Shown here: positions 25,508 through 64,000 of the stretch, one piece after another
How the letters are laid out: the number at the start of each line of letters is the position of its first letter
Numbering within the stretch: position 1 is the stretch's first letter
NCBI GenBank assembly: GCA_008632985.1
Contig: QPGO01000010.1
Span: 310,001-374,000 of the forward strand
Source: Psammoneis japonica
Taxonomy: Eukaryota
DNA: 64,000 nucleotides
Reading direction: 5' to 3'
The notes under the pieces: generated by a model
What the model was told of the DNA's origin: nothing
The model's database searches: none
What the model saw: the letters and a program-made list of their open reading frames with translations, nothing else
Translations under genes and position numbers: made by a program

Positions 25508-25679
25508 GGTGATGAAGCAGCGACGGTCGCAAACAAACAAACAACACGCGAGAATGGGCGATGACGAACGGTGCCCGACGTTTCTCGTATAGAAATCACG
25601 TACTTTTTACATACTCAGATTTTCAGTACAATCCAAGGTGTACCGCGAAGGGGAGGGTTTGTCGGCTGATGTACAGGCC

Positions 25680-27800: not shown

Positions 27801-28272
27801 CGGGCTACTACAGTGGGCCCTGCAGCTGCCAGCAGCTGACAACTGGCCAAGAGAGCACTCAAGCAATTTTGTCGGGATGGTTCTTCGTGCACAGCAAACA
27901 GAAGGACACGCTGCTTGTCGTTCGACAGTTGCTGGTATTTTCGAGGTCATATTGAACATCTTTAGAGACTAGCTGCGCATAATATTTCTAGCTGAGAGTG
28001 GAGATTCGGTCACGTTGCGTGATTGTCCGCTCTACGTTAGGGCAAACAGGCTAGAAAGTTTTTGCGTTGCGACGGTTTTTCGTTCGTGCATCGCGCGGCT
28101 ACAAGACATAAATTGGTGTCATACAGTTCAACTGTCTTTTGCTCTTTGGTTTTCAAGAGGTCTTACACCGCATTTCAATCAACACATTTTTTTATTGAAA
28201 AGCAACAACAAAGTGAACCCGTCAACATTAATGTAATGGTAGTATGAAAACCCTCACTCTCTACAGTTGCAT

Positions 28273-29917: not shown

Positions 29918-32900
29918 ATGTCAGCACCTCCCGTTCTGGATATACAAGTGTTGGAACTCGTCACGGCGCTTTCCGATGCCAACAACCACGATTTACATGT
30001 GCAGGCTATTCGTGCTCGAGATGCCGCATTTTCCGCATCTGTCGAGTCCTATGGGAATCTCTGTGTACAATTGGCTCTCTTGATGCAACACTGTGACAAT
30101 CCTACGCAAATGGTGGAATATCTGAAGCAAAAAGATCCGTCTGAATTAACGTCGTGGCAAAACCAAGTCGGAGCGAGTGGGTGGGAACAGCTGGTGAACG
30201 GAGACGGTCAAGCGTGGACTGTAGTTGGACAATTGGCGGGGCTTATATTGAAACGGGCGCTGCTCAATCCGCCACCGCTGGCAGATCAACAACACCGCAT
30301 ACTGCACTTGGTGGCGCCGTTTTCAGATCAAGTCAAGGATTTCCTTTTGAATTCGGGCTTGGCGTGTCGGTCTGTCGAATTGAGGAGTGTTGTAACATCC
30401 ATCATTGCCACTACAGCAGTCTCGCACAACTCTGTACAACCGACAATGGCAATAGAACAGTGGCCCCAACTCATGCCTACGTTGTTACAAAATTTGCAAC
30501 AAAATCAGGATGCAAACAAAGTGGACGCGTCTCTGGAAACGATTCGGAAAATGATGGAGGATGGGCCTTCGGAAATACCTACTCCTCAATTGGATGAGTT
30601 GGTGCCGGTCCTTATGCACTTTTTTCAATCGCCAGAGGAAAAACACAAGGTCTCGGTTCTTGAAGCCATGGTGTCGTGTATGGATGAAGGAATCATGCCC
30701 AATGCGTTGATTGCCAATTTTGACTCGTATCTCGGCCAGCTTTCCGCCTTGGCGTCTGATCCTTCGCAGCAGGTGCGAAAATGGGTGTGTCGGTCCATTG
30801 TTACATTGTACGTATAGATATGTTTCTGTGATTTGCTGCTGTATGGATATGAATTGCATCGTCTCATCGCCTTGCCATACTCTTTTCAACTTGACAGATT
30901 GGTCTTGAGAACAGAATACATTGAACCCCACATGGACGCCATTGGACAATTCTTCTTGACAAGCACTGCGGGTGTGGCGCAAGAGCAAGTGGCACTCGAG
31001 GCTTGTGAGTTTTGGCTGACCTTTACCACTCTTGAAGACGATGGCCTTACCCCCGCCATGATTACTGTCGTGCAAAATTTGTTGCCGCAGCTCGTCCCGA
31101 CTCTACTTCGCGGCATGGTGTATTCGGCTAGTCAACAAGAAGATTTGATGTTTCAGAATGAATTAGAAGCGAGTACCAAGCAACGACAAGAAGTCAACAA
31201 GCCAGTATTCCACAAGACGAAAAACAAGCACGGCAATGAAGAGCCCGACTCGGATGAAGATGACAGCGATATTGAATTTGATGACGACGACAATGAGTGG
31301 TCGTTAAGGAAATGCTGTGCGGCCAGTTTGGATTCACTTTCAACCATGTATGGGCCAGACTCGATACTCCCGGCTTTTTTACCAGCACTCAAAGAGGGAC
31401 TCAGCCATTCGGACGTTTGGGTTCAAGAAGCATCGGTTCTCGCGCTAGGTGCCATTGCGGATGGTTGTCGAATGGAAATGTACCCTCACATGGGACAGTT
31501 ATATCCGTATTTGCTGCAAATATTGGCTGGGCAAGACTCTGCTAGTCAGAACTCTGCAGAGAAGACTGCTGATACGTTACCCCAACTCAAAATCATTGCT
31601 GCATGGACGCTTGGCCGGTATGCCTCTTGGGCTGTCCTTCAAGTTCAATCCGGACAACAAGGGCATTTGCTGGCTACCATGACGGAAGTACTCATGGCTC
31701 GACTTGACGATCCGAATCGCAAGGTTCAAAGCGCATCGTGCTCGGCGTTTGGAGTCTTGGTTGAGTCGGCGGGTGATTTACTTGTGCCTTACTTGGAACC
31801 CATCTATCAACACTTGGTGGCTGCCATGAATAAATCTCAAGGCAAGTTGCTGCTTGTTATCTTTGATACTATTGGCGTCATGGCGGACTTTGTCGGGCCG
31901 GCCATTGGCGAAGGCAATCTACCAGCAATTTATATTCCGCCCTTGCTTCGGTTGTGGAATGACATCGCAACCAATTTTGGTCCGTCCGATCGGACCATGT
32001 TGCCACTCATGGAGAGCCTTGCCAGTATTTCCTTGGTTTGCGGTGTAAACTTCCAGCCGTACGCACTGGAAACCTTTGAAATGTGCATGTCCATCATTGA
32101 AACCATGACACACGAAGGAACCTTTATTTTCGATGATGAAGAAGCGGATCCAATTGTGTGCGCGAGCGACTTGTTGGACGGTATGGTGGAGGGCCTACAG
32201 ACCAACTTTGCGACGCTCGTTTCGAGCAGTACCCGATGCGGACCACAATTTAGCAGTATCTTGCACACTCTCGCTAGCCATCAAGTGCCCAATGTTCGCA
32301 TGAGCGCCTTTGCTCTCGTTGGAGATTTGGCCGTACAATGTCCTTCCGTGCTCGAACCAGCTCTTCCGTTGGTACTCAAGGAGGCTGTCGAATGTTTGGA
32401 CACCATGCACCCTGGTGTTTGCAACAACGCGGTATGGGCAGTTGGAGAGATCTGCGTCCGATGCGTCAATAATCCTAAACCAATGGAACCCTTTGCACCA
32501 GCACTTCTTCAGAAAATGATTGGGCTTCTCATGGGTAACGCATCAGGTATCAGTGGCTATTCGACTTCGGTGGGAGTTACAGAGAACACTGCGGCCGCCA
32601 TGGGGCGGCTCTCGAAAGTGAATCCGAATTTTGTAGCGGCCGACTTGCCGCGGTTCTTGGTGGGATGGTGAGTACTAATTACCACTGGTCTAGACGCTTG
32701 GCAGAAGGTTGCTCTCTTTTTCGTTATTTTTACAAACCGGATTTCTTCTTTATTTTCTTGTCCGTTTTCAGGTGTGATGGTATTGCAAAAATCTCCGATC
32801 CCAAGGAACGTCACGACGGCTTTGAAGGATTCCTATTAGCATTGCACGCAAACCCTCAAGCGATTCAGACCGCGTCTGCAGACATTGTAGGCACAGTAAC

Positions 32901-41429: not shown

Positions 41430-42083
41430 ACCTGGTATGGTAATTACTGTACTGTACTTCTGGCCGTGGAAAGACCCGTCCTAGCCGGAACTTGTCGAGA
41501 GCCTACCAGATCCTTGCTCAGCTTACTCCAGCAAGCTCTCATTTTCTGCATCAGCCGAGGAGGCCTGAGGTGGATGCGGCTTTTCGACTCGGGGGTTGCT
41601 GATGCTGCTTCTGGCGTAAAATCAAACGTGTAGTTGCAAATCGCGGTAACCACTTGTGCGCTCGCAATAATAATCATATCGTGTAGTGGTGGTGAGCGGA
41701 CCGCCGAGCCAGAAATGATCCACCATAGAGCTGAAAATGATTGAAGCCGTGTGGCCAATGCCTTGAGTATCGAATCACCGTGTTTAATAGACAGAGCCAC
41801 CAAGAGCCCACCCGCTGCGCCCAAGATGGCCAAGATCCATGTCACCAAGGTCCAACCGCCACCATACTAACCCAAAACCCATTCTCTCCACCACCCTCGT
41901 GAAACATGATCGAGAGATAAACTGGAAAGCTCCACAAGGCTCATTGAAAATTCCGTTACAATAATCCAATTGTTCGCCACTGGCTTCTATCAGCTTTTCA
42001 AAATCAATTGATGCAAATCCGCTCAGCGTGACTTCGACTAGCACTGCCACTGTGCCCAGCATTTGATTGTTGCCGTCCAATGG
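41430..42083 (-). pseudogene. Partial, frameshifted duplicate of the 3' half of the nucleotide-sugar transporter at 61724-62929
   Basis: Colinear with 61680-62300 (EVTLSGFASI, LGAAGGLLVALSIKHGDSILKALAT), with stops and indels and no 5' half. Confidence 0.85.
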
Positions 42084-42089
42084 TCATTG

Positions 42090-44965
42090 GAGCATCGTCC
42101 TAACACATGGCTCTTTCTTCTTGATCAATCCAAAATGACCCTGACCCTTTCGATATCCTCCAGAGCCAAGACACCCATGGTAACGCCTTGAGCCGCAGCA
42201 ATGATATGCGTCACTGTTACTGGTTCTCTCTCTTTTTTTTCTGGTCCGAGTTCTTCGTAATTTCGTGGATACCGAAACCGAAGTGAGTGCCGGAGTGCTA
42301 ATAGAATGGTGTGGCAAGTCGGTGACTTAGAGGAAGAAGGCTCTTGTAGGGGTGGACCTCAATAAAACCCCGACAAAAAGTCGGAAGGCAGAGAAACATG
42401 GACTCGCGCAGCCTTTCACGGGTGTTTTTGACGGTTACCGTGAAGTGTGTTTGCCAGGCTCGTCTTGCCTCATATTGGCTGCACTTTGCATTTTTCTCTG
42501 GATAATCATTGCTCAAAGCGACTTTGAATGTGACATGGCGAAGGTACGGTATGTTCCAATGTTTTCTTGCATAAGAGGTATTGCCACAATCAGTAGCTCT
42601 TCAATCTAAAACAACGAGTCCAGTGCGAGCAATGCCGGGAATCTCAATTGGACGATTGTCTTCTCAAGCAAAAAGATGCAAATCTGATCAACTTTGTCAT
42701 CTATCACCGGCTTCGAACGAAAATCTTGACGGTTTATCTCCAAGTTACTTTTGCAAAACGCGGCTCTCATGGTGTTTTTCAAAATCTCCATAGAGAAATC
42801 AAGTCGAGTCGTCCCGTCATGCTGAATGCGGGATCATCTCCGTATTTCCGCGTACACATGAAAGCCGCACCGTCCACGGCTCGCTTGACAATTCATACGG
42901 ACTGGTACAGCAACAGATAATTCCAACACGTCCTCCACAGGTTGTTGTTGCAGCGCCAGATCCAGTATGGTTTTTGTCATCGTTGCTGTACCGTCACCGG
43001 TAGTAAACTTCCCATTTCGTGGAGGGACGTACAAGACAAGGCAAACAATAGTGGAGCCTGCTGATCCACGAAAATGTCACTGTCACGCTCCAAGAAGGGA
43101 TAGGTAAACGGAGTCCTTGACGTAGGATACGGGTGGCTGTGAAAGAGCAGATTATGGAAAAAGGTGGACATGGTGGCAGGCAAGAGCGGAACACTCTCCT
43201 CGACCCACTCGCCAAATACTGACTGTCCCTTACGATTCCAAATCCAACAACTCTCCCGTCAGCTCCTCCACCACTTTTCCATCGACGGTGCTTCCCAATA
43301 AAGCCTCTTGATAAGAGGCCCCAGCGCGTGTCGGTCGGAATCGATTCTTGCAGAAAACAATCCAATCCTTCACGAGTTCTCTACTGAAATCCGGCGTCAC
43401 CAAGACATGCGACGCTACAGCAAAACGAGAACACAGATTGACCAAGATTTGATCAAAAGAACCATCCAGTATGGCATTTTCCCTTTTCAAGTCTAATGAC
43501 TTGACGATTCATGTAGCTTAGTCCCTCAATACTCTCGCGGCATGAAAGACAATCATGCCGTCAAATTCACATGTGTGAGCCTTGAAATAGATTGACCAGC
43601 ATCTAACGACACTGCTCATCCTTGTACGAATTGAGTACACGCTTGACAAAGGGATGACTCATCTTTTGCATACACCCCCTTTACTTGTTTGAATTGCAAT
43701 ATCATGCTTGTATTGGACCTTGAGGACATTTGCCGTTTTGCCCACTCGTTGGCTATTATTATTTGGCGTGGAACCTTTCATCATTGCATAGTTGACCAGT
43801 AATTTTAACAGCTGGGTTGTCACTCCCACAAACTAGTCACATTTGTCCAAAGGTATCAGCTCCGAGTAGTTTGAGCATTTCAAAGGAATCGAGTTGAATG
43901 GAGTATTCCGGTTTGGTGGGTGCCTCGTCCACAATGACCCTTTCAATGTCCTCAAGAATCAAGACACCCGTGATAACGTCTTGAGCCGCAGCAATGTTAT
44001 GCGTCGCTGTTGTTCTCCTTTTTTCATAATTTCTGGCACGAGTTCTTCGTTCTTCGTGTCTAAACATGGTGTTTGGTCCGAAAATCTTGGTCGTTATTCC
44101 ACCTAAATTCGTGGATGCCAAAACTGTTCCCGAAATGGCAATGTAGATCGTTGCCAAGTGGACGCAAAAGCAAAAGCACTTTTTTCTCCATGTACTCTGG
44201 AAAACAAGTAACAACAGACCGCGATATCCCTCCTGCTCACAGCTCCAACTTGTCATAAGCTCAGTCATTTTTTTCTGAGCGTACGCTTTTGTTAAACTTG
44301 GCAAGGACCTTTGTTTGTGGGCGAATCCTTCTTGCGAAACAAAGATCGGATCTTGTGCCATCTTCATAAACCGACAAGTGCTCTTTTGCGAAGAAGTCCC
44401 GGCCTCTACAAAAATTTTGTGTTCCGACACATTTTCTCGATACGAGACAGCCACACGAGCCTCGAGATCCTTCAAACCTGCAGCCACTCCATATGAGAGT
44501 TGGTCTAGTACTACTTTGGGCAGCATAACCTGCGACTGGCTGCTTGAAATCATGTTGTATAGGTCTCAAACACCATTTGTTGGTAGGCGGGTCATCTATT
44601 TTCCTTTGCGAGTGTCTATCTGGTTGAATCTTCCATTGATTTTGTTGACATACGGTCTTCCTATGGACAAGTATTCAGACTCCATTCGGTCTCCCAAATC
44701 CACGTACAGTGACAGAGAGGAAAACGGCTCTTGTAGGGGTGAACCGCAATAAAAGGCCAGTGAATTCGGGAAGACAGCGAAACATGGCGAATGGATGGAA
44801 TTGGAATATGTTTGACTCGTGCAGCCTTCAACGAGTGATTTTGACGGTTACCGTGAAGCTTGATGTATACTTGCGGAATCGTCTTGCCTCGTGTTGGCTG
44901 TTTCTCGCTCTGGATAATCACTGCTCAAAGCGACTTTCAATCTGCCATGGCGCTACAGTACGGTA
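42090..44965 (-). repeat. Two decayed paralogous segments: 42090-42550 is an internally deleted copy of about 43930-44965
   Basis: Shared: ttgagccgcagcaatg, ggctcttgtaggggtg, ttttgacggttaccgtgaag and ctctggataatcaYtgctcaaagcgactt. The longer copy holds ORF 43837-44553 of unknown family. Confidence 0.7.
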
Positions 44966-45207
44966 GGTTTTGCGTGACACGGCGGCGGCGGCGGCGGCAG
45001 TTTTTGCGTTTTGGACGGCTACCGTAAAGCGTACGTAGGAATTAGTAATAATTTAGAAAGTACCAAGTTCCTACGAATTTCTACATACGAAATCATGGTA
45101 TTAATTCTACAAGAATACACAATAATGATAGTGATTGAAAAATTTAGCAACGGTCATGACTCAACCAAAGTCTCTCCAAGCTTTTTCTTTCGCGCTGTTT
45201 TCGATCA

Positions 45208-49624: not shown

Positions 49625-52262
49625 GCTTTTGCGGCAATGCTGTAAGCAGCAGTTGTTTTGTTTGTTGACGTGGTGCGATGATTTGTGATTGTGTTCATTT
49701 CCATCTTCATTCACATCATTCGCTATTCTGGAATTCAGTGTTCAGCGTCTTGCGGTCTGTCGTCGACATGATGTTTTGGACTATTTATTTCAGTGCTGAT
49801 CACCTGCATGTTGTGCCATGGATTCGTCGTCGTCGTGTTTGCTTGTTGTTGGGGAGTTACAAGTGTTCTGCCAAACTGACGGAGTAACAGAAGAATGTCC
49901 ACGACAAGCCACATGGGGTTTAATTGAGCCATCTCAGTGCTAAAGTGGCCAGCTGCAATGCTCTCTGGCAGAGAGAAACAGAAGATTCGCAATTCTTGAG
50001 TTTGTCTTTCTGACGGCACCAAGCTCTGTCCACCCACCTTTTGAGGTGAAGAATCACCTGGCTGGATGAAAATGATGTTGAACACCTTCTTCAGCTGAGC
50101 AACAAGTCTCCTGTCAGAGTTCTTGGGCTTGTCTTGAAGTTGGCCTTGAGCACGTGGGTTGGCGCACCAGTCAGGATCAAGAAGCAGACGAAGCTGTGAT
50201 GGTGGCAAGGCAAGCCCAGTGGAAAACCGCAATGGGATTTTCTTCACTGGCCACAGATGATTCCTTGTGAGTGGCCTCTTGCTCCCAGTCATTGCTCTCC
50301 ATGGAGGTTGCTTTTCCAACATGCAGTCCTCCCAAGGCTGGGATGCAGCACAGCAGAGCACAAATCCACACACAGTGTTGGGAGACAACAAAAATCACTG
50401 CAGAAAAACATTTGCCTGCCTTCAACAAAAAGCTGTCTTGGAGGGTGCATCTTGTCTAAAAGGACGAGAGAAACACAGCTGCAAATGAGGCTGTTGCACA
50501 TTGTTTGCAATCAAATTGCACAGAATTGACATGACAAAAGTGCCAAGAAGTCTTGACTCATCAGAGGAATGGTGCAAAAGAGCTGTCATCTTAGTCAATG
50601 ATGGCTTGGATTGCAATCATCCACATGGAAAAAACAGTTGATGTGGTTTAGAACATGTGACGACTGCTGTGGAGGTTTGCTGTTTTGGGAACTCAAAGAA
50701 AATTTGGTGAGAACATCTTGGGCACAAAATTGCATGGAGGATGAAATGCACACAGCCATTGGAGATGAGAGCAACAAGAAGAATCACCATGAAATGTTGA
50801 AGGCACAACAGAGCACCCCCCCTCCAACACCTGTGGCATCTCAGTCATGGCACAACTGCCTGACAAATGTTCCAAACAAGTGTCCCAGGAGGTCAGCACA
50901 ACACCAAACTCCAGTGTGGGGCAGTCCTGTGGGGTGCAGAAAAGCAAATGCAGCCAAAACAGCTGGACCAGCACAACTGACAATGAGCTCAACATGCAGG
51001 AGTGACTGTCAACAGCTTGCCATTCCTGGTGTTCTAGCCATGACCTTTTCTCCAGTCCATTTCCAATGACCTTGATGCCAAACACTCCCTTGATTTTTTT
51101 GGGATGATTGCAGTGAGAGTTGACCCTCATTCTCTGCTTGGTGGTCATGGCATTGGCAAGCCTCAGATTTTAGCAACAAGCAGACCTTCCAGGGCACAAT
51201 GCATGGCATTGTTGCCCTCCCACTGCCAGCAGCTCATTGAAAAAGGACAAGCACCATCTGCTGCAGTCGTGCAGATGTCTTAGAATGAAAACAGTGCAAG
51301 TTAGAGAGTTGCCAACAAGAAAGGCAAGCAGAGCCATTGAGCAGCTGAGGCAGTGCAGAGCTGGTTTCTCTTGAGTTCTTTGACTGTTCAGGGCACTCCC
51401 GTGCTTTGTGACAAACACATTTCAACTTGTGGGATTGTCTTTTGCCATCAACATGATTGTCTCTCACTGTCACAACAACTGCCACAAAGTGTGGAATGCA
51501 CCATTTTTGATTGGCTTGAGGTCACTTCTTGTTGATCTGTCAACTCAAGCAAACAGCTGCAAACAAGCACCACTGTGCTTCATCCAAAACAGATGTGTGC
51601 AAGCTTGAGCTCAGTTGCTGCACCGATGAAAATGCTGAGCTCATCCTGGAAGGTTGCACTCATGGAAAATCAATGATCTTCAGGCTGTTGCAAAGTTTGC
51701 CGGCAATGCAACCTGCCAAACAAGTTCACCACAGCACCAACAAGAGTGGAGTCAAATCCACTTGCTGGAAGTGATGGGCTGTCATTGTGCAGAAAAGTCC
51801 AATGAAGGGACTGTGCAAGAAACTGCCAATTGCACAAATTGTCTTCAGCAGCAGGAATGTGAAAACAAGATCCAAAGAAACAGATGAGAGGAGACATGGA
51901 AGAAGAAAAAGCCCGCAGTGCCAGAGTGCATGAAAAGCTTTCTGGAAAAAGTGCCCAAAAGTTTTTCTGACCTGGACAAGAATGAGACCATGACAAGTCT
52001 CTGGCACCCTCCTCCCCGAGAAGAAGATGCACTTGAGGTGGTTTCTCAAGACAATGCAAAAGTCTGCTTTGCTCACAAGGAATCATGGTCACAGTCATGA
52101 GAGAGTGGCTGTGTTGATGGCTGTGACAAACCTCAAAGTGTTTGTCCTTGTTTGTTTCCAAGTGGCTGAAGATTTTGCTCATGTGCACACTCACTTTAGA
52201 AGTCAATCATTTGTCCATTTGGGGAGAGCCAATGCTGGCATGTGGTTTGTTGAAGTTTGCGG

Positions 52263-52538
52263 TGATAGAAATTGAAGGCAAATGGCAAGAATTCAAACAA
52301 CAACTCCTCACTGCTGTCTAAACAGCAGATGAGTCTCCGCTCAGAGACCGTCACAGGAGCCGAAAGACATGCAAGTCGGCACAATTGGGCTGCTGTTGTC
52401 ATTCTTGTGAGCCTTGTGGCTCGAAAGCAAACTACATCGCGCGTGAACGCGCGGAACTAAAGCACACAAAACTGTGCGCGGCAAACTAAACAGCGCGCGA
52501 TGCTTCGCGCGCATCCAAATCCTGTTCAAATCCTGTCA
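52263..52538 (-). repeat. 3' LTR of the copia element
   Basis: tgatagaaattgaagg...tcaaatcctgtca; aligns without gaps to 58921-59196. Confidence 0.95.
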
Positions 52539-52539
52539 C

Positions 52540-55500
52540 TCCCCAGTTTGCTTGAGGAGCCACAGAAACAGATTCGACTTCGGATGGAATGAAGTTCCAG
52601 AACATGAGGGGTCGGAGAAGGTCCCAGATTTGGGAGTGACCCCAATGCTTGCTGAGAATGTCAGCAGGGTTGCGGGAGCCTTCAATGAAGTGGAGCTCAA
52701 GGCAACCAGAGGCAATTGCCTCACGCACACGGTGGAACGACAGTGCGGTGTGTCGCTTGTGTAACTTGGAGTGCGGGATGGTGGCACTGTCTACAACCGA
52801 CTTGTTGTCACCGAACATGCAACTGACATTGCGGATCGGGACGCCAAGGTGGCGCAGGGTGATGCGCAGGTCGACAATCTGCTCAACACAATTCCTTGCG
52901 GCAACAAATTCAGATCCGCAGGTTGCAGTCTCCACGGTGGCTTGTTTCTTGGAGAACCAATCAGCCGGGAATTTGTTGAGGAAGTGGAGCATTCCCATGA
53001 CAGAGCGTCCGGTGAGCATGCAATGGTGCAAGTTTGCATCGACGTGGTGGGTGGCAGTGACAAACTTGCCAAGGGGCGGTGGAGCGTCCTTCGGGATCAT
53101 CTCTTCTGCTTCACCACACACGGAATGCATCCATTCGCAGGCCGGAGCAGGGAGATCCGAATGGTCGGGCTCTTCCGTGCGAACGCGGAGAGCACCGTGT
53201 CGCATCTTGGAGAGGCACCCACAGACGCGTTTGGCACGATCCAAGTGGCCTTGACGGGGCGCAGCTCGGAAGCTAGAGAGTGACATGACGGCCGTGGTGA
53301 TGTCAATTCGACCAAGGGACACTGCCCATTGGAGTGAACCAACAAGAGACTGGAACTTGTGAATGCCATCGGGTCCCAGCAGTTCGGAAGTGTCCAGTTC
53401 GGGGTGGTCACCCTTCTCTAGAGGTGACAGGGCGTTGGTGGTGGGTTTCTCCCCAAACAGTCGGGCGCAGCTGTCGACCATGCGCTCGATGTACTTGCGC
53501 GGAGACAGGCACAAGGTTCCGTCGGGGTCCCGGGAAAAGTCGCAACCCAGATGGAACTCAATGGGTCCCGCACCCTTGAGCTTGAACTTGCACTTTTCCG
53601 TGAGAGTGTCGACGAAAGATTGAGGGTCCTTCATGGCAATGGCGAGGTCATCCACATAAACGGCAATGTGTTCATAGTGGTCGCCGTTCCTGCGCATCCA
53701 AATGTCGGGTTCGGCGTGGCAGGGGAAGAAGCCTTCAGCTCGCAGGCAGTCGGCGAAGCGCTCGTGCCAGCGGAGACCGGAGCTGCGGAGTCCATACAGT
53801 GCCTTGTGGATGACAAGGATGTGTCCTTCGAGTTTGCCAAATTCGGGTCCAGCCACAATGTAAAGCTTCTCCTTGGTGGTGGCTTCAAGGCAGGCATTGC
53901 CAATGTCGGTGGCCCATGTCTCCAGCTCGTTGAGTTCGGCCAGGAAAATCATCAGCCGAAGGCCACGAAGGGAGACCACTCCGGAGTGGACACTGTCGAC
54001 AGGTGCGTCCGTGAGGTGCCCGTCGGCTGCGAGTCGTGCCTTGTGGCGACCGTCGTGTTTCACGTCGCACACCAGGTGCACTCGGATCTTCTTGTGTCCC
54101 GCAGGAGGAGTGGAAGACTTGAAGGGCCCGCAGTCATGGAAGACTTCGTATTCATCGAGTTGGTCCATCTCGAGATTAGTTGCGTCTCCCCACTTGCGGT
54201 TGCCGTTGCGTTCGTCCAGTGACATGGCGTGTTTGTAGTTCCGGGGAACTTCGCATCCGCACTTGCAGCGAGGTGCAGTGCGGAAGGAGCGAAGCTTGGC
54301 TTGGTTGGCCATGCGAAATAGCTTCTTTTGGCGCCTCGCGATGGTGCGGAACCGCTTCCATCCATCCGTGTCGAGGAGTCCGTTCTCTCGTGCATAGATG
54401 GCACAGGTGACGGGGTCGTCCTTGGCGATGATGGCAAGAGGCTCGGACGTGATCTCCCCACTTTCCCATTCAAGCATGATGTTGTAGCTTGAGCCTTTCC
54501 AGGTTGGGTCGTGAGGCTTCAGAGGGCCTTCGTGTGACACGATGCGTCGAAATTTCCAAACAGTGGTGTCTTCGTCTTCTTGCTCAATGTGATTCATGAT
54601 GTCATTGTGGGCAAGGACTTCCTCGTATTCGTCATTGTTGACAGAGCAGACGAACTTAGTGAGCTCGGGATTGCCGTTCACTTTCCATTCGTGGTCTTCG
54701 ACGGCCTTGACGATGCGAGCTCTGTGGCGTTGTCCGTCCTCTTGTGGCTGCATGAGGAAGGTACGTCCAATGATGTCTTGCGGATCGAAAACTGGCATCT
54801 TGGGTGTCCTGATCTCCCCATCAGGAGAATCGACGGGGTTGTCGTCATGGCGAGATTTGATGATGGGTTCAGGTGGCTCCCCATCAGGAGGATCAAGACG
54901 CAGGTTTCGAACGGCAGGATCGGGGGTGGCGGAGCGAACGTTGGACCGGCAGAGGATCTTCTGAGTCTCGTCAGATAGAATCTTGAAGGTCATCTGGTGG
55001 CCGACGTGCTCAGCAATGCCAACGAAGCGTCCACGCAACTCACGAGATTCGGACGGCCAATCGGAGTCATCGAGGTGGAAGTACACTGGTTCCCACCAGT
55101 GAAAGCGAAGCAATGGGCTGATGTCCGGGGTGGATCCAGTGAGAGTCTTGAGGGGCGTGCGCCAGTGGAGACGTGGGGACGCTGCATGGTTGAGTGTGAA
55201 GCACACGCACATGAGCGCCAGCAGCCATGTGTGGGCGGGCGAACCAAAACGGTCCATGACAGTGTTCGCCATGCGCTTCACAGTCTGGTGTTGACACTCG
55301 GCAAAGTTTTGGTGTTGCTGGTGAGGCTCACTTTGCCAGCTGGAGATGAAGAGGGCGCGTAGGATCCCGAGCACTTTGTTGCTGATCTCAACTTGAGCAC
55401 GGTCGCTAATGAGTTTGGATGGGGCACCACGTTCACGGATCTGATCCTCGAGTGTGTTGACAAACTCTTTGTCCGTCTCAGTGCCGCAGACGTCAGTGAC

Positions 55501-56330
55501 GGTAGACTCGGTGCCAACAAACAGTTGGGCGCTGGTGCAACCAGAGTCGACGGCCGGGGTGTCGGCACAAACGGTGTCAGTGGCGATGGGCTCGTTGCGA
55601 CGGTGCACATTAAGGGCGGGGTTGGGTGATTTGAAGGCCTTGCGAAGGTGTGCACCGGCGGGCATGCGGGTGTACTGCGTGGTGCAGTCAAAAGTACGAC
55701 GGACCGCATTGGCAGGTGGGAAGCCAAAGCAAGGCCGAAGAGACTCGAAGGGGGGGTCCTTGGGCTGTGCAGTGCGCTCCGGAGGTGGAACGTCATCGCC
55801 CTTGGGGTCAATCGCACGCAGATGACACTCGTGGAACACGTCGTCGTTCGGAATGAGGTGATCATCGAGGGCGGACGCGTGATCGGCAGACAAGGAAGCG
55901 GACAAGATGGTCTCGTTGACAACGACACGGTGACGGCAGTTGCCGCATTCGTCAAACAGGTTGGCAGTGGGATCGTCCTGTGGGTCAGAGATCGCGTCGC
56001 ACCACTGGTCATCGTCAGTGACAGAGTGATCGAGGACGGAAGGGTCCCATGTGTCATCACCGGTGAGGATGACGTGGGGCAGGGTGTCCCATTCGGCGTC
56101 AGTGTGGGGTCGCATGGCAACACAAGGCAGGCCAGCCTTGATGTCAATGGGGATGACATGGCCATCAGGAGTGGCGGTGCGTTGCAAGCCGTTGGGCACC
56201 TTGACAGAGCGATCGTTGACATCCTGTTTGTGCCATTTGAGCTGGCCGCAGGAATGGATGGCAGACGTCGTCGCCAGCAATGCCGCCGTTGGCCCCACGA
56301 TCGACTAGAGCGCCAGTGCGTGTGGAGCGA
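52540..56330 (-). pseudogene. pol: Copia pol (protease, integrase, RT, RNase H), inactivated mainly by missense changes
   Basis: LVDRGANGG (PR); IATDTV, LISDRAQVE and SEPHQQHQNFAE (IN); KARLAADGH, DIGNACL, KALYGLRSS and YVDD (RT); GSEFVAAR, MFGDNKSVV and NPADILSK (RH). Frameshift near 56300; 1270-codon open frame with only about 12 Tyr. Confidence 0.9.
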
Positions 56331-56599
56331 TGAGCAGAGGCAGAGCAAATGACATTGTGGTTGTCAACGCGGCGGCAAGTGCGGCCGTCAAGTTCTGTGT
56401 CATCTGCAGAAGCTGGCGGGGTAGAGGAAGCGGCGGATGGCCCCGGTCGACTGGCATTGGGGGCTTGGTTAGGAGACAACAGACGTTGCAGATCACCGGG
56501 TGGCAGTGGCTTGCGCTTGGTGAGGTGCGCCAGGACAGGATTGTCCGAAATGGCGCCCACATGTGCAGCGGAGTCACCACAGTCAGCAGGAGTCGTGTT

Positions 56600-57997
56600 G
56601 GACAAGTTGACATCACCGTCACTCCCAAGGTGTTGGTCGTGAAGGTTGGCCGTAACAGACTCATGGCAGTTGCTGGCTCACGGGTTGCAGGGAGGCGGAC
56701 GAGAGTGCTCAAGGATGATCGCCTTGGAGGAATCGGGCAACGAATCCCAGAGCCGTTGGTGGTCGGGAGGGAGACGTCTCCATTGGACACCGGCGAGGCT
56801 GGGACCACGGGTGCAGGCAGCATTGGCTTGAAGGACGTCAACGTCGCTGTCAATGTCGCAGAACACATGGTCGGACGGTTCCTCGGAGTGGACGTCGTGT
56901 GTGCATGTGGCGCGTCGGGGAGCTCGAGGTGTCGTCTTGGGTTGAAACGTGCTGTCGCACTGAGCTGCCGCGGAGAGGAGCAAGCCACAGCATTGATCGT
57001 ATGTGAGGCTCTTGCCACTCTGCGTGCGATGCTGATCAGCTTGGTTCTTGACAGCACGGAGTTCCTCGACAGGGTGCACGGCATTCTCGAGCATGATGCG
57101 CTTCTGTCCTTCAGAGAAGTGGTCGCTGGCGGGGATGAGTGCCTCGTGCTTGCGCAACTGATCTTGCCAATGAAGGATGAACCCGTGGGTCGGACCTTTC
57201 CAAGTGCCATCACCAAGACGTGCGGTGGTGAGGTGCGTGAGCAGGGTGGAGGACTCGACAGATGCATGGGTGGAGGCAAGCGCGCATTCAGACAAGGAGC
57301 GGCAGACGGTCTGTGCGTCAGAGGACCCCACATTTTCGCGAATGAGAGCCTTGCCCTTGTCGGTGAGAAGGATGCGTTCGAAGACGGCGAACATGCACTT
57401 TTGCTGTTCAGCAAAGAGCAGTTTGTCTTCGGGGCTGGTCGGTTTGTACGACGAGTCTAGAATGCACTCGACGTCTTGGGCACGGGCTTGTGCCACAAGT
57501 GAGGTGTGCCAAGTGTGCCACTGCTTGTCGGATTTGAGAGCCGTGAAAGCGGTGGGATCACGCTTGATGCCTCGCTTGAAGTCTCGCACCGGGTCGCGTG
57601 CCTTGGTCGGGTTGGTGACATGTGGAGGTGCAAGGGGTGAGCTGCCGATGGACAGAGAGGACATGCAGTGCGGGCTGAGGCGGCAGGCAAGGAACTCGTC
57701 ATGCACGAACAAAGAGGAGTCGTTGGCAACGTCAAGACCTTTGTGTGCTTTGACAATGTACAGGCCAACCAGTGCTGCTAACATGTTCTTATAACCACGG
57801 GGCAAAGGGATTACATTGGTGCCGTTGTCGCACTCAAGCGAGTCGATTTGGGACGGTGTGAACGTGAATGGTTCCTGATGCGAGTCCGTGCCGTCTTGGG
57901 CCAAAGCCAAACGAAGAGGACTCCCAGCACCTTGGGCAAGCACGGTTCCAACAACGTGCTCGAAACCATCGGTTTGTTGCTGACGAGTGAGAACCAT
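56600..57997 (-). pseudogene. gag: Copia gag
   Basis: MVLTRQQQ...DFKRGIKRDPTAFTALKSDKQWHTW...AQARAQDVECILD...MLENAVHPVEELRAVK, typical of CoDi gag. Frameshifted into the PR region near 56680. Confidence 0.85.
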
Positions 57998-58906
57998 GGT
58001 GGACAAAAGTGGTGTCAGGACAATCAACTCTGGTTGGGAAGCGAAGGTAGACTCGAAACTTGGGTGAGAATAGACTTGACTTGAAATCTTGAACTGTCTT
58101 AAAATCAGAAGTTGCCGGGCTTTGTCATCCCGTTCGTTGTCAAGTGCCAAACTTCCCACCCGGTCCGCAGAGTTGTGCCGGCACGTCCGAACCCGCAGCT
58201 GGTGGCGTTTTGGGTTGCTTGCGAGCGGAGTGGCGGGTTGTAAACCCCTGCAGGTAAGCTGACCAGAGGTGGACAAGACCCCCGAACCGTTCTTGTTTTA
58301 CATCGGTTGGATTTCCCGATCAGGCTGGCCAGTTGACGCAGGCGTCAGGCGCTGTGGACGAACGAACAAACGCGGGAAAGCACCCTCGCCCCAACGCAGG
58401 CTGCAATCACGGCTGCTTGCTCTCACAGTCGTCCTCGTGGACCTGGTGGAACTGCAGAGCACCAGCAGTCCGGGGCAGATCAGGTGCAATGGACTCGGTG
58501 TGCTTGTAGAGTGGCAGCAAAACCGCAGTCCGAAGAGTGGGTGCAGGTTCTTGGCCGTGAAGATGTGTGTGTGTGTGTGTGTCTTCAGCGACGAAGATCC
58601 TTGAACATGCAGGGTTCTTGACTGTTGACCAATGAACAGGCATGTCAAGGGATGAGGATCAAGGACAGACTTGGATGTGACCGTTGAATGTATGTCTTCA
58701 GCGATCAAAGGCAGCACAATCAAACCAGACATCCAGCGGTGAGGAGACTTGACGGTGACGTTAACTTCCTGCCGATGCCCTGGTGTTGGATGCGCGCAGA
58801 CTTGCCGATGTATGTAGAACATGTGCGGAGGTCCACGTAGAATTGAAACAGCGTCGTTGGTAAATCAACGACGACGATGGCGGTTGCTCAATGGGTTGAC
58901 AATGAG

Positions 58907-58920
58907 CAAGACTGTTAATC
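58907..58920 (-). other. Putative primer-binding site complementary to the anticodon arm of tRNA-Asn(GUU)
   Basis: The plus strand CAAGACTGTTAATC directly abuts the 5' LTR and reads as stem-CT-GTT-AA-TC. There is no canonical TGG PBS. Confidence 0.55.
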
Positions 58921-59196
58921 TGACAGAAATTGAAGGCAAATGGCAAGAATTCAAACAATGACTCCTTGCTGCTGTCTAAATGGCAGATGAGTCTCCGCTC
59001 AGAGACCGTTGCAGGAGCCGAAAGACGTGTAAGTCGGTATAATCGGGCTACTGTCATTATTCTTGTGAGCCTTGTGGCTCGAAAGCAAACTACATCGCGC
59101 GTGAACGCGCGGAACTAAAGCACACAAAACTGTGCGCGGTAAACTAAACAGCGCGCGATGCTTCGCGCGCATCCAAATCCTGTTCAAATCCTGTCA
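58921..59196 (-). repeat. 5' LTR of the copia element
   Basis: tgacagaaattgaagg...tcaaatcctgtca; 19 substitutions versus the 3' LTR by manual alignment. Confidence 0.95.
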
Positions 59197-61723
59197 TGCG
59201 GCCAGAGCCAACTCCTGTTGTTCTTGTGCATCATTTGCTGATTGGTTGCCTTTCCAGTCTTGATCCCCCACACACATGTCCAAGAGAACCATTTTGCTTG
59301 AAGTCTGCACACCAACCAGCCTCAGACCAACTGTCCAGAGATGGCATCCATGAGCACTCAAGGTGGTGACGGCAACCCTGGCAACAGCTGCAGGTTGTGG
59401 TGCAGCGCTGCTGACACCAGCCCACAACACATGGCTGGACACCAAGAGCAACAGCAATCAATCAAAACAGGGTTGTCATCGTGATGACACACCCAACACA
59501 GCCCAGAAAATTTCACAAAAAGAGAGAGAAGAGCAGCAGCTGCAAGGGTGCTGAGAAGCAACTCTTGTCATCACAGGACATGACAAGAAATCTTGCCAAT
59601 GTGACTCACATTGAAAGCCACTGGTCCTTTCAAAGAGAACAGACACAACATTTCCCTGCTCCTCTTTCTTCTTCTTCTCCTCCTCCAAGAAAGTCACCTC
59701 ATGTCCCCTGTGCTTTTGCTCATTTTTTGGGATGTCTCAAGTGTGCTTGCCTTTCCCTGTGTTTTTGGTTCTTTCCAGGGCAGCATCTCAACCATTGTGC
59801 AAAAGCTTGGGACCATCCTTGTGCTTTTGGCATGTTCACAATGGCTCTTTTGAAATGACTTGCTCAAAGCTGTCATGACCTCAGTCATCTGTGAGAACCC
59901 CATGTGCTGCAGATTCAAATCATTTCAACCAGCAACATCTCTTGCAACAAGGTTTTTTTGGCTTGCTGCAGTTGCTGGCACAAGATGTTGTGTTTTCAGG
60001 TTCCCACAAGATGTTCTTGGCTGCACCCACAATGTGCTCACCAGCTCCATGCACAAGCCATCTGGCTCAGGTTTGACATTGCCACACTGGGGACAGAGAT
60101 GCATTTTTTTCTCCCTGGTCATTCTCAGGTCTTGTTGTGGCGACCTTTGCTCCCTCTGAAAGAGCATGGGTGGTCTGTTTGGAGGTGCTCTTTGTCTTTG
60201 GTTTGTCTGTGTGCTTCCTGTCTGGGATTTTGCAGAATGACGCTGTGTCCTGTGACTTGGTGGCAGTCACAATGAGGGCCATTCTTTTTGCCTTGCTGTG
60301 TTTCTCATCTGTCTCACTGGCCATCCTCTTGGCATGTCCATGGCTGCCTCTCTGTCAAGCACAACACAGTGCATGTTGTGCTTTGTGTGGTGGCCACAGA
60401 CTTGAAGATGGATGAAGACAACATGGTTGTGCTGACTTGCTGTTGATGCCACAATCCTCCCGCATTTTTCATTTTGCCATCCAAATCAATCACAGCTGCT
60501 GACTCATCAATGGGCTCTTCTGCACTGTGGCTGATGGTGTGTTTCTTGACACAGCACTGGCCAGGTTTTTGAGCCAAGCCACCATTGCTGTCTTCATTTC
60601 TGCATGATTGGCAGCTTGTCTTGCCTTTGTTGTGGCTTGTTCTGCCACATTCATTGGATGGCCAGTTGGACAACTGTGTCTTGCTGGTGACTCTGGAAAT
60701 GCAGCAAGGCAAGCACATTGTTGGATTCCTCCAACTGCATTTTTTGTGTCTTTGTTGTCAATGTCTCCATCACAACTCTTGCTGCTTCTCATCACTTTCT
60801 GGTGCTCTGGCTGGTCACAAGCTCTGCATGTCATCTCTTGTGTTTTGCTGCATTTTTCTTTGTGACTGCCACACAATGTCTTCCAACATGGCATGTGTGC
60901 TGATGTTGCTGGGCAGGCCATGCAACATTTTTTTCATCCAGTTCGTTCTGCAGTTGATGCTGGTTTTGAATTTTTGTTCTGTGCTGTCTCCTGTGGCATG
61001 TGGGCACCTTGGGTGGCACTGCAATTGCCAAAAGCAGTGTCTTTTTTTTTCAGAAGTGCCTCCAAGCTTGGGGCACGTGAAGCAGTTGGAGGACATTTGA
61101 CACCCCGACTTGTCTGTTTTGATGTGACAGAGTCTGTGTTGCAGCAGGCTCACATTGAATTTCTTGTTCCTCTGCCAGTTCTTGCAGGAGTTGCTGAACT
61201 GGAATTTTGTTGTTTGACATTCCTCAGCTGCATTGTCACCCAACATTGACATCAAAGCATTTGCAGTTGACTTGGTCTAACATGTGCATCAACACAGCCA
61301 CCAAGTTCCGATCACTGCTTTTTGCTCTTTGTTGTTGACAACCATGGTTCATCATCAACATCATTGCATTCATCATGGCTGTCATCACTTTTTCAAGATG
61401 CAACAACTGTCACGACGCCTTTGGCAGTGATGGAAGACTTGCGGCAATTCCACCCCAAAAATAATGCAGACTACAGTGGAAACGGGACGATCTAACGACA
61501 CTTCCAGGTTCTAGGACAGCGTAATGCATGCACTCTAGAGAGACAGTGAGATCTCCGTCTTTCTATGCTAGCAATCTGTCTATCTCGCATGGAGCGTACT
61601 CCCTGAATGAAACCCACCTCAAGGAGAATTTTGCGCCATTCCATATCTCTAGTTTTTCCTCTTAACAATAATACCGGTAATAACATGGTAACTACTGTAC
61701 TTATGGCCGTGCAAAGAACCGTC

Positions 61724-62929
61724 CTAGCCGGAACTTGTGGAGTGCCTACTAGATCCTTGCTCAGCTAACTCAAGCAAGCTCTCCTTTTCTTCTTCTGCTG
61801 AGGAGGCCTGAGGTGTATGCGGCTTTTCGACCGGCGGGGTTGCTGCTTTTGGTGTAGAATCAAACGTGTAGTTGCAAATTGCTATAACCACTTGTGTGCC
61901 AGCAATAATCATAGTGGGGGTGAGCGGACCGCCTACCAGAAATGATCCAACAAAGAGCTGAAAATGATTGAACCCGTTGTGGCCAATGCCTTGAGTATCG
62001 AATCACCGTGTTTAATAGATAGAGCCACCAGGAGCCCACCCGCTGCGCCCAAGATGGCCAAGATCCATGTCACCAAGGTCCAACCGCCACCATACCCATT
62101 CTCTCCACCACCCTCGTGAAACATGAAGGAGAGGTAAACTGGAAAGCTCCACAAGGCCAACTGAAATTTCGTTCCCATATATCCAATTGTTCGCCACTGG
62201 CTTTTATCACCTTTTCAAAGTAAATTGACGCAAACCCGCTCAGCGTCACTTCGACTAGCACTGCCACTGTGCCCAGTATTTGATTGTTTCCGTCCACGGA
62301 CATCGGAGCCCCGTCCTTCCAGATGGGCTCAGAAAATAGCAAGACGCCCAGCATTAGAGCTACAAGAGCACGCCATTGAGTTGTGGTGTAGTGACGCCGC
62401 AATATTAGAGTGGAAAAGGTGGCAGTCGTCAAGATTTTGCATTGCGCAAAAATAGTAAACATTCCAGCACCAATGTTTCGCAACGAAATGTAGCTGAGAA
62501 TGTTCATGAGTCCGTACAGAATTGCCAAAACAAACATCTTTTGAGACTTCTGAGCTAAATAGTTGAGTCGACTCCATATTGAATCGCCTTGCGGTAGATT
62601 CCCCGAAATCATCCATGCGGCATACACCATTTTCATTGCTTCACCCATCAAAAGTACCTCGTGCTGGTCGAGCAGACGGGAATAAGTGTCAGCAGACATC
62701 ACATTCGTGCGGTATTTATTGACTCGACCGCCTAGAAAATAACAACAGCGCTTACCTTGGAATAGTCCTCTTTCAGAATCCCCTGACTGTACCGTCTCAG
62801 TACGGTGAACATTGAGTTTTGCAAACAGAGAATCATCAGCACCACGAGTTTGGTGCTGTTGAGACATGATGATAGCCCTCGACGATTCTTTCCATTCACA
62901 TCATCAGGTGTCGAAGGCGTTGCTGCCAT
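61724..62929 (-). pseudogene. Nucleotide-sugar transporter (SLC35A/UDP-galactose or CMP-sialic acid type) with two 1-nt deletions; exons 62929-62756 and 62663-61724
   Basis: LCLQNS...RRYS, LMGEAMK, QCKILTTATFS, LSGFASIYFEKVIK, IWERN and GGLLVA..IKHGDSILK. The frame breaks near 62165 and 61935, so this is either a pseudogene or an assembly error. Confidence 0.75.
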
Positions 62930-64000
62930 TGTACCACTCTTAATTTATGAAGATAATCTGATTGCTTTTCTTCTCCCACTAGGCTGCCAATATCATGTAC
63001 AAATACGGAAAGAATTGAACACGGAGCTTTGAGCTGAAAATGGAGATAATGACCCGCAGCGCAGCGCCTCGTCTGCTTGTCCGTGACGGACTTATTCTTT
63101 TATTGCGACTGTGCAATACAAAATTCCAAACTCTCGAATAAGCTATTCCATTCACCAATACGAAAATCAATTACAGTTTAATATCCGTGTCTGTTCACAG
63201 GTGCCAGGTGCAGCTCTGATGATTGCTCGTCTTACCGCAAGGGCGAATAAGATCTTAAAGTGTCCCAATGTGCATGGTGAAGAATCAGCTCCCGCACACC
63301 AGCCCTACTGTACGCCTTTGACAACATCATCATCATGGACCCGATACGCGCAAGGCCTCGGCAACAAGAACCACACGGGAGGCTGTGAATTATGAACATT
63401 CATGATTGAATGTATTATATAGACTTCATGAATTATATATGAGATCGAATACTTCTATTATAATGAAACCCGAACCGCGATCTTGCCGCGACCACAAACC
63501 CGAACAAGAACAAAAGGTCGCGAAAACGAGGGAAACGGGAAACGACTCCGAGACGAAAACAACACGCAACTCGAACCCATCTATGCAATTTTCTGTTCAC
63601 AATCGAAAAGACATTCCTCCGCGCCTCCACTTCTCACGGATAGAAACATTTTGACAAAGAAGTCATGCCACGGCCAAAGTCTAAAGCAAAAGGCAAGGAG
63701 GCCCAAATCGCTTCGCTTGTAGAGCTTTTGATGAACGAGCCTTCTCTGAACAATGAGATCCCCGTCAAGCGTGACAAGAACAGTCAACCTTGGTGTCACA
63801 TGGAGCTTTTCGCTCGTACTCTTGAAAATGGTCGTGACTTGGTCCACACGTGCTTTGTGATTTTGGACGGAGTTGAAAGACCAGCAAAGGGGGAAACCCT
63901 CAAAATACCGCGAAGGCCTACAAGACGAGTTGCTGAAATGTCTCCTGGTTTTGCACATGGTAGTTCAGCGTCAGACAAAGTGGCGGAATAAGAGTAGGTT

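Follow-up and report, generated by a model that had tools for sequence, protein, structure and literature searches.

The mutation pattern closest to the one reported here was described in a preprint on Bigelowiella natans, in which two integrated viral regions took 231 of the 302 substitutions that arose in mutation-accumulation lines of this rhizarian alga (Mettrop et al., bioRxiv 10.64898/2026.01.13.699255). As presented there, all but one of the viral-region substitutions were A to G or T to C, those all fell on TpA, and the rate in these regions was about 1000 times that in the rest of the genome and was active only in some lines. The preprint also reports an excess of reverse-transcriptase and DDE domains among TpA-poor coding sequences, discusses the preference of adenosine deaminases for a 5′ U or T, and interprets the process as a defense against invading DNA, possibly by an ADAT2-like DNA adenine deaminase (10.64898/2026.01.13.699255). 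In diatoms, transposable elements (TEs) are reported to be CpG-methylated by DNMT5a (Hoguin et al. 2023, PMC9998398). The paired long terminal repeats (LTRs) of diatom CoDi retrotransposons are reported to be 94–100% identical in a paper whose main text gives no spectrum for the differences and does not contain the words 'RIP' (repeat-induced point mutation), 'hypermutation' or 'deamination' (Maumus et al. 2009, PMC2806351). Our literature search returned nothing on TpA-directed hypermutation in diatoms and found the signature described only in the B. natans preprint. Here we analyze a 64,000-nucleotide stretch of the diatom Psammoneis japonica (assembly GCA_008632985.1, contig QPGO01000010.1, positions 310,001 to 374,000 of the forward strand; hereafter the window) and a Ty1/copia retrotransposon within it (52263–59196). 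We consider it probable that this element and the host block around it have undergone, in place, a locally targeted hypermutation of TpA to CpA or TpG at the DNA level, together with a slower decay of CpG.

The locus resembles the B. natans regions, as the preprint describes them, in several respects. Its changes are nearly all A to G or T to C (18 polarised changes from TA to TG or CA, and none in reverse), they are restricted to TpA and give TpG or CpA by strand (12 of 14 variable LTR sites hold only TA, CA and TG), they are confined to discrete regions while the host DNA is normal, and they have led over the long term to TpA depletion with enrichment of CpA and TpG. Whereas the preprint concerns single-copy giant-virus and virophage inserts in a rhizarian, the target here is a high-copy LTR retrotransposon in a stramenopile, and its LTR pair supplies an internal clock. 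The symmetrised observed/expected ratio (rho) of TA is 0.45 in the nucleocytoplasmic large DNA virus region of B. natans, as opposed to 0.18 in the element and 0.00–0.11 in four blocks of the window (0.19 in 27001–28000), and the TpA frequency is 6.0% in the B. natans nuclear genome against 4.2% in the normal compartment of the window. Also unlike B. natans, loss of CpG is coupled to that of TpA here, the TA- and CG-free blocks have sharp borders, and the surviving TA steps are mostly YTAR. The B. natans rate was measured de novo; the evidence here is the trace left in the sequence. The locus adds a second lineage, and a first retrotransposon that carries an internal clock, to a type of hypermutation described so far only in one preprint.

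The element lies on the minus strand between two copies of TGCGG (52258–52262 on the left and 59197–59201 on the right), a target-site duplication (TSD) that assigns both LTRs to one insertion. A polypurine-tract-like run read from the sequence (52539–52551, minus strand, ...AAACTGGGGGAG) sits directly upstream of the repeat at 52263–52538, and because this purine run ends in GGGGAG and adjoins 52539, the repeat at 58921–59196 is the 5′ LTR; both LTRs, on the minus strand, are 276 bp long, and the 5′ LTR begins and ends in TG...CA. Aligned with each other, 52263–52538 and 58921–59196 give 276 columns without a gap and with 19 mismatches, all of them transitions, which group into 14 YpR (pyrimidine-purine) dinucleotide sites. 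TA stands against CA or TG at seven of these sites (columns 4, 110, 118, 120, 129, 138 and 220), CA against TG in doublets at five (columns 39, 47, 61, 90 and 135), and CG against CA or TG at two (columns 106 and 124); recoded to purine and pyrimidine letters, the LTRs are 100% identical. An initial sequence-only reading of this DNA had reported 19 substitutions at 14 dinucleotide sites with no indels or transversions, and our realignment confirms that count, reproduces the division into seven, five and two sites exactly, and finds its example of GGCACAAT against GGTATAAT to be correct. YpR steps cover 52% of the LTR bases, and the chance that 14 of 14 sites would fall in them is about 1e-4. 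The chance of 19 transitions among 19 differences lies between 3e-5 and 5e-4, depending on whether the transition share is taken from the other duplicates of the window (144 transitions to 106 transversions) or set at 2/3.

The LTR divergence of 6.9% lies entirely at target steps. Columns 1–138 contain 18 of the 19 differences and nearly all LTR TA steps, and the differences cluster in this half because TA steps stood there; a hand count of TA sites for this clustering gives 12/13 in columns 1–138 versus 1/4 in the other half, which is CG-rich and TA-poor. Nineteen CpG steps of the CG-rich half are intact in both LTRs, and four TA steps are common to both, three of them in CTAA. The strand coordination of the LTR changes was not significant (6 runs, P = 0.058), nor was the difference between T-A-Y and T-A-R among them (10 versus 6 by hand count). 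Within the 64-kb window no further copy of the 276-bp repeat was found beyond the two, and a degenerate LTR pattern had no match in viral contigs or metagenome contigs.

Reverse transcription copies both LTRs of an insertion from a single template, and since those of this element differ, the changes happened on the chromosome. For an estimate of rates, we took the twelve CG-free variable LTR sites as TA at insertion, which assigns 11 TA changes to the 3′ LTR and 6 to the 5′ LTR, or 17 over 16 sites in two LTRs, about 0.5 changes per TA per LTR by hand calculation. At the two CG sites the 3′ LTR carries CA and TG, and the 5′ LTR has between zero and two ambiguous states. The same hand calculation gives at most 2 CpG losses among about 42 CpG-copies and no change in about 200 non-target bases. 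At these rates the expectation is about 4 double changes for TA sites and about 0.05 for CpG sites (hand estimate), so that TA accounts much better for the five doublets observed. The process strikes mainly TA, with CG as a second target that changes more slowly. The sequence-only reading had placed the changes after insertion, in place and on both strands, which the LTR differences and the balance of Tyr-to-Cys and Tyr-to-His changes (below) support, and it had derived CA-versus-TG sites from an ancestral TA or CG changed on opposite strands, which holds in that all four testable doublets in the coding region come from TA. Its picture of a young element free of background change stands in one respect, the lack of LTR changes outside YpR; the age itself is bounded only loosely, the zero changes in about 200 non-target bases limiting background divergence to less than about 1.5% at 95% (hand estimate). 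It was right that LTR-based dating would be inflated, since all LTR differences lie at YpR, and dating by LTR divergence is invalid for this genome and any like it.

The direction of change was polarised on the coding sites of the element, not on its LTRs. Twenty-four metagenome relatives aligned to the pol frame served as the outgroup, and a column was called conserved if at least 23 of the 24 agree, which gives 442 columns. The copy in the window deviates at 31 of them, and the deviations fall heavily on tyrosine: 12 of 19 conserved pol Tyr residues are changed (6 to Cys, 4 to His and 2 to Phe) versus 19 of 423 other residues (Fisher p 5e-11), and in the N-terminal part of the polyprotein all six conserved Tyr residues are changed (4 to Cys, 2 to His). 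Over the whole polyprotein, Tyr (TAY) has become Cys (TGY) or His (CAY) at 16 of 25 conserved codons, with 10 changes to Cys and 6 to His as the measure of strand balance. T372A and V757A are also changes of TA to TG or CA, which brings the polarised total to 18. Outside TpA, the only T-to-C changes at conserved columns are I41T and F1202L, and four pol deviations (E21K, R335C, R336Q and T1101M) are of the CpG to TpG or CpA kind. Decay of the 5-methylcytosine type is thus present as a minor part, comprising the two LTR sites, an in-frame TGA stop and four or five missense changes.

A RIP-like direction, from CA or TG to TA, was looked for at the same coding sites, and the opposite was found. 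At 54 conserved columns (His 0/20, Cys 0/6, Gln 0/13, Trp 0/15) the reverse direction accounts for no change at all, so that the window copy has no His- or Cys-to-Tyr, Gln-to-stop or Trp-to-stop change at conserved columns, and nothing there runs from CA or TG to TA or to CG. Judged from these aligned codons, the changes run from TpA to CpA or TpG, against the direction of RIP, and CpG decay contributes a minor part. Private changes of Tyr to Cys or His are absent from all 24 relatives, and over the same columns their composition (Tyr 4.07%, minimum 3.58; Cys 1.17%, maximum 1.49; His 3.65%, maximum 4.26) contrasts with 0.9% Tyr, 3.0% Cys and 5.0% His in the window copy. At the nucleotide level the element has a rho of 0.18 for TA, 0.88 for CG and 1.40 for CA/TG, whereas rho TA is 0.74 ± 0.15 in 37 loci of relatives (minimum 0.49), and none of 817 1-kb windows in 79 such loci falls below 0.25. 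A host transportin gene of the window, used as a control, keeps all five of its conserved Tyr residues.

Variation among other copies of the family was read from one public sample of the same organism, comprising four runs whose k-mer contigs were compared with the window at 80% likeness. Such contigs drop rare variants, and the share of window words found was 0.64. The family is represented by 14039 pieces with a summed depth of 6e4–1e5, as compared with about 52 for a unique flank contig; the copia family is very high copy, its depth corresponding to a copy number of the order of one thousand. One run (X1) gave 381 transitions versus about 50 transversions. The site-level reading rests on the 40 best-supported variant places (there are 392 more), of which 3 are in an LTR; transitions make up 38 of these 40, and YpR steps account for 32, nine adjacent TG/CA doublets among them. 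In every one of the nine, A at the second base is at least as frequent as C at the first, which identifies the third haplotype as TA and not CG. The coding doublets can be followed to their ancestral state through the relatives. The window reads CAY (His) at codons 1150, 1046 and 771, where other copies read TGY (Cys) and 22–24 of 24 relatives have Tyr, and at codon 774 the window has GTG and other copies GCA, with Val in 24 of 24; on this comparison, all four testable CA/TG doublets derive from TA changed on opposite strands. The pattern extends across the family and is not peculiar to this element. Tyr875, Tyr835 and Tyr688 are TAY in the window, and Cys or His there makes up 99%, 71% and 52% of the family depth, while codon 564 is His in the window and Tyr in 83% of the depth. 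Codon 861 is CGC in the family and CAC in the window (H861), a change of the CpG process.

Tyr875 (window position 53675) was noted separately. Cys (TGT) occupies it in 99% of the family depth, and Tyr is found in all 24 relatives and in this copy. The reads also touch the flanks of the element: a right-flank contig (59197–59400) differs from the window by three substitutions and a one-base insertion in 204 bp, and another contig has an extra TTT after 52209. These flank differences are either allelic differences or small assembly errors.

A 1-kb dinucleotide profile, drawn for this 64-kb window only, divides it into two compartments with borders sharp to within about 100 bp. Gene-bearing DNA (16001–26000, 28001–50000 and 61001–64000) has rho TA of 0.45–0.84 and rho CG of 0.50–1.17, whereas in the four blocks rho TA falls to 0.00–0.11 (0.19 in 27001–28000) and rho CG to 0.05–0.43, and rho CA/TG rises to 1.59–2.00. 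The largest block spans 15.5 kb (500–15999), ends in a sharp right border at 15999/16000, and contains open frames without Tyr or a family match; a second, TA- and CG-poor block of 2.2 kb (25700–27890) lies between two host genes. The element itself sits within a block whose left half (50000–52262, border near 50000) has 0–1 TA and 0–3 CG per 100 bp and whose right half extends from 59197 to a border near 61400; in 60001–61000 rho is 0.00 for TA, 0.07 for CG and 2.00 for CA/TG. Per kilobase, TA steps number 42.4 in normal DNA, 9.7 in the element and 2.6 in the blocks, CG steps 53.7, 71.5 and 12.5, and CA plus TG steps 146.6, 170.2 and 222.4. The gain of 75.8 CA+TG per kb in the blocks is close to their combined loss of TA and CG (81.0), and their GC content is nearly unchanged. 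The element is inside its block at an intermediate stage, with TA mostly gone and CG still there, which marks TA loss as the faster process.

Further comparisons within the window bear on the same point. In a paralogue pair of about 220 bp, the block copy (4237–4460, plus strand) carries CA or TG, among their YpR differences, where its normal-compartment counterpart (42560–42751) has TA at four sites or CG at four sites, and one site shows the reverse. The TA steps that survive in blocks are in YTAR in 45 of 58 cases versus 247 of 1458 in normal DNA (p 1e-22), and in 19 of 67 in the element (p 0.02). The YTAR survivors are CTAA/TTAG, TTAA and CTAG; the blocks have lost ATAT, ATAC and GTAC. These survivors, on which the preference is based, point to faster change at T-A-Y than at T-A-R, which we treat as a lead and not a result. 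TAA and TAG occur 1.3 and 1.0 times per kb in blocks versus 8.2 and 9.7 in normal DNA, and it is because these triplets nearly vanish that the blocks contain long Tyr-free open frames. The spectrum of the other duplicates in the window is ordinary overall (106 transversions, 77 transitions in YpR and 67 other transitions), and their 13 CA/TG doublets include ten in a tandem repeat inside the large block.

We propose that a Ty1/copia (CoDi-like) retrotransposon inserted once, with the TSD TGCGG, into a diatom stretch that would already have been under local hypermutation. The process would convert TpA to CpA or TpG through A:T-to-G:C change on either strand, and alongside it CpG would decay more slowly to TpG or CpA, as expected of 5-methylcytosine deamination, CA/TG being the end state of both. 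Each LTR would have changed independently: a change in one LTR would leave TA against CA or TG, changes in both on opposite strands would leave CA against TG, and the two CG sites would reflect CpG decay in one LTR. The same process would have turned most Tyr codons of the polyprotein into Cys or His, and the long open frame survives, since no stop codon can arise from A-to-G or T-to-C changes. The sequence shows the spectrum of the changes, their direction, their in-place timing for the LTRs, the division into blocks, and how all this departs from host genes and relatives; the agent would be an enzyme acting on DNA in silenced chromatin. By analogy with what has been proposed for B. natans, the leading candidate would be an adenine deaminase of the TadA/ADAT2 kind.

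Fungal RIP is the best-known process of a comparable form: it is chromosomal, acts after integration, produces only transitions in a dinucleotide context on both strands, disables repeated or foreign DNA, and leaves blocks of aberrant composition. If a RIP-like or other cytosine-deaminating hypermutation had acted here, ancestral CA/TG and CG would have become TA, a reading that accommodates the restriction of LTR changes to transitions at YpR, the very high copy number of the family, the four listed places at which the window has TA and most copies have CA or TG, and the presence in diatoms of DNMT4 enzymes that are related to fungal RID and of unknown function (PMC9998398). Three of those four places, however, are Tyr codons kept by 23–24 of 24 relatives, so TA is ancestral there. 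The 54 conserved His, Cys, Gln and Trp columns contain no reverse or stop-making change, the element is poor in TA (rho 0.18) and GC-rich (57%), and the blocks are TA-free. RIP turns CpA into TpA by C-to-T change, increases TA and AT content and creates stops; here TpA is destroyed, GC is kept or raised, and TAA and TAG disappear. RIP is also triggered by duplication; here the copia family is high copy, the blocks are not repeats of each other within the window, and the 87%-identical duplicates in normal DNA show an ordinary spectrum. The RIP-like reading is contradicted by direction, and we give it next to no credence. CpG methylation decay by itself, with all 14 LTR sites originally CG, TG and CA the products of single deamination and TA that of double deamination, is also contradicted, in this case by the intact CpGs: 19 CpG steps are intact in both LTRs versus at most two lost in one, only about 0.05 double losses would be expected, rho CG of the element is 0.88, Tyr codons contain no CG, and the third haplotype of the doublets is TA. 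Such decay does change CG to TG or CA on either strand and covers the shortage of CG in the old blocks, CpG methylation is reported for diatom TEs (PMC9998398), and E21K, R335C, R336Q, T1101M, the TGA stop and H861 (CGC in the family) all point to it in this copy; it does not act on TA, and it is clearly the slower process here (rho CG 0.88 versus rho TA 0.18), so that as a sole cause it is highly improbable. Editing before integration, whether ADAR-like conversion of A to inosine on RNA or deamination of reverse-transcription intermediates, would draw on the 5′-U preference of adenosine deaminases, which fits the TA context, and the prevalence of Cys at Tyr875 (99% of family depth) suggests inheritance of some changes through copying. 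APOBEC and ADAR editing of retroelements in animals likewise yields clustered transitions of the deaminase type; it works on RNA or reverse-transcription intermediates, makes G-to-A/C-to-T or one-strand A-to-G changes, and leaves the LTRs alike. Here, by contrast, the LTRs of one insertion differ despite their single template, both strands are changed about equally (10 Tyr-to-Cys versus 6 Tyr-to-His), and blocks without a retroelement signature are scrubbed as well, with sharp borders and CpG loss too, all of which makes editing before integration very unlikely.

It might also be asked whether the LTR differences were imported, by ectopic gene conversion or by assembly or polishing that mixed copies or miscalled modified bases. 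In favor of import, the family has a depth of about a thousand copies, 18 of the 19 differences fall in one LTR half, the flank contig differs from the window by three substitutions and one insertion in 204 bp, and only 0.64 of the window words were found in the reads. Imported variation should resemble that of the family, which includes 8 of 40 places outside YpR and two transversions, yet none of the 19 LTR differences is outside YpR; the clustering tracks TA positions (12/13 in columns 1–138 versus 1/4 elsewhere), and the TSD is intact. Basecalling noise, for its part, cannot give TA- and CG-free kilobase blocks, Tyr-to-Cys and Tyr-to-His changes, or the same variation in independent reads. 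We consider import or artefact unlikely. A different chemistry for the same in-place process has somewhat more in its favor: thymine at TpA might be modified by a TET/JBP-type enzyme to 5-hydroxymethyl- or 5-formyl-uracil, which mispairs with G. Change of T to C at TpA on either strand yields the same pattern, and this chemistry would pair naturally with 5-methylcytosine decay, as both involve 5-substituted pyrimidines at palindromic YpR steps that are lost jointly in the blocks. In dinoflagellates, 5-hydroxymethyluracil prefers TpA. The papers listed by the literature search all concern dinoflagellates, and among them no evidence for such a base in diatoms was found; T-first and A-first chemistry cannot be separated by sequence. 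Thymine modification is accordingly a minor possibility in our estimate, and we continue to favor in-place hypermutation of TpA with an adenine deaminase as the leading candidate.

Several points weigh against that favored explanation. For the 14 LTR sites, the ancestral state was deduced from rates and from the coding sites, and the 19 LTR states are those of the assembly. The letter of the window occurs in no contig at 53137, 56556, 57147-8 and 58724. Measured against the family majority, the window copy has changed both ways, and sites can be polarised only where an outgroup exists. The pattern at Tyr875 looks inherited, through edited copies that kept multiplying, or the site extremely hot, rather than the product of independent changes, and the family may have lost some of its TA before individual copies inserted. 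The blocks contain no recognisable TE or viral protein, and targeting of foreign DNA is shown only for the copia family. The coding strand of pol is also C-rich and has 73.7 CG per kb as compared with 47.4 ± 21.4 in relatives, and the TA process alone leaves this C- and CG-richness of the element unexplained.

A more general proposal can be made tentatively, as one we entertain without favoring it: diatoms may possess a chromatin- or small-RNA-guided editing defense in which adenine deamination or thymine modification at TpA in silenced DNA, on both strands and together with CpG decay, turns invaders into TA- and CG-free DNA saturated with CA/TG and bounded by sharp borders. If so, it would be a functional mirror image of fungal RIP, and finding it in both a rhizarian and a stramenopile would suggest that the system is old and widespread among eukaryotes and that a natural double-strand-DNA adenine editor of T-A-Y preference exists. 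Even the narrower account, if true, would mean that a process known from one alga also runs in diatoms, which belong to a different supergroup lineage and are major ocean phytoplankton; it would make A:T-to-G:C editing as a general eukaryotic genome defense directly testable, with the two LTRs of one insertion as a built-in control for action on the chromosome, and it would point to a possible natural DNA adenine editor. There are consequences for annotation as well. Long open frames are no sign of intactness in such DNA because TAA and TAG vanish, homology-based TE annotation will overlook scrubbed copies, and silenced DNA can be charted from dinucleotide maps, on which it lacks TA and CG and has doubled CA/TG.

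The control offered by the LTRs of relatives is weak. Among 79 metagenome loci, 20 have a terminal or long direct repeat; we left out L001, whose repeat is not an LTR, L016 and L038 (4.7–6.7-kb tandem copies) and L023 (70% internal repeat), and, as uninformative, nine loci with identical overlaps of 103–127 bp. The remaining LTR pairs (L022, L033, L039, L042, L053, L060 and L071) differ by 34 transitions, 20 of them in YpR, and by 24 transversions; these are ordinary mixed spectra with a CpG component from contigs that are possibly chimeric. The repeat of L001 (1–537 versus 7493–8029) overlaps the pol match; of its 20 differences, 17 are C/T in coding-strand terms and look synonymous, as if two copies had been joined. 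Three loci (L003, L022 and L005) combine a rho CG of 0.22–0.24 with a moderately low rho TA of 0.49–0.52, a pattern of plain methylation decay without TpA scrubbing.

In its structure the element has the traits of Ty1/copia: RVT_2, TG...CA LTR ends, a 5-bp TSD and a polypurine tract adjoining the 3′ LTR. RVT_2, the LTR ends, the 5-bp target duplication and the diatom host are also features of CoDi elements as described in PMC2806351. The long open frames are on the minus strand. The pol part of the polyprotein is a 1270-residue open frame (52486–56298) whose residues 732–943 (53470–54105) match RVT_2, the copia-type reverse transcriptase (PF07727, E 5e-26, 92.2 bits versus a cut-off of 31.6). 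The N-terminal, gag-like part lies in another frame (56264–57997) and starts with an ATG at 57997; alignment with six metagenome relatives confirms that the window copy reads in two frames. At 56264–56283, where relatives have about 48 extra residues, there is a frameshifting deletion, and contigs of other genomic copies diverge from the window at 56261–56265. A TGA stop at 56678–56680, where 13 of 23 relatives have Arg, is consistent with a CGA-to-TGA (CpG-to-TpG) change; it is the sole in-frame stop of the polyprotein. With one stop and one frameshifting deletion, the copy is defective. No integrase family was found in the Pfam search at E 0.001; about 730 residues before RVT_2 align with relatives. 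Of 8000 scored metagenome candidates, 1961 proteins matched at E ≤ 0.001; among the 120 relatives listed, the best identity is 74%, and many are single frames of about 1850–1940 residues on contigs of about 7 kb. The element protein had no match among viral contigs.

The leader between the 5′ LTR and the start of the polyprotein (57998–58920, minus strand, 923 bp) is unusually long and contains a 174-residue open frame (58298–58822) without a Pfam match; no obvious tRNA-type primer-binding site follows the 5′ LTR.

Searches of the blocks returned little. No relative of the element was found within the scrubbed blocks, and a Pfam search of block frames at E 0.1 gave nothing except a sub-threshold DDHD match. 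No homologue was found for the block frame 7449–8393, and the frame 9511–10557 had one weak match only (E 1.7e-4 over 41 residues). A comparison in purine/pyrimidine space revealed no further homology of the blocks and no repeats of each other within the window. The reconstructed empty site of the element is crossed only by a 103-codon stop-free stretch. The tandem duplication in the large block is about 710 bp long (10972–11470 versus 11682–12174), is 75% identical, and carries ten CA/TG doublets.

Two pairs of segmental duplicates lie in normal DNA around a nucleotide-sugar transporter gene (62070–62867), and their spectrum is ordinary: 41450–42113 versus 61693–62330, which are 87% identical and differ by 35 transversions and 22 transitions, and 42142–42558 versus 43935–44972. 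The host genes of the window look intron-poor. Two adjacent frames with HEAT repeats (29918–30817 and 30932–32671) are probably one transportin gene split by an intron of about 114 bp, and, in line with a diatom host that has no close sequenced relative in the collection searched, the best named homologues of a host transportin all come from diatoms: Seminavis, Cylindrotheca, Nitzschia, Pseudo-nitzschia, Ditylum, Chaetoceros, Cyclotella and Thalassiosira, with identities of at most 61%.

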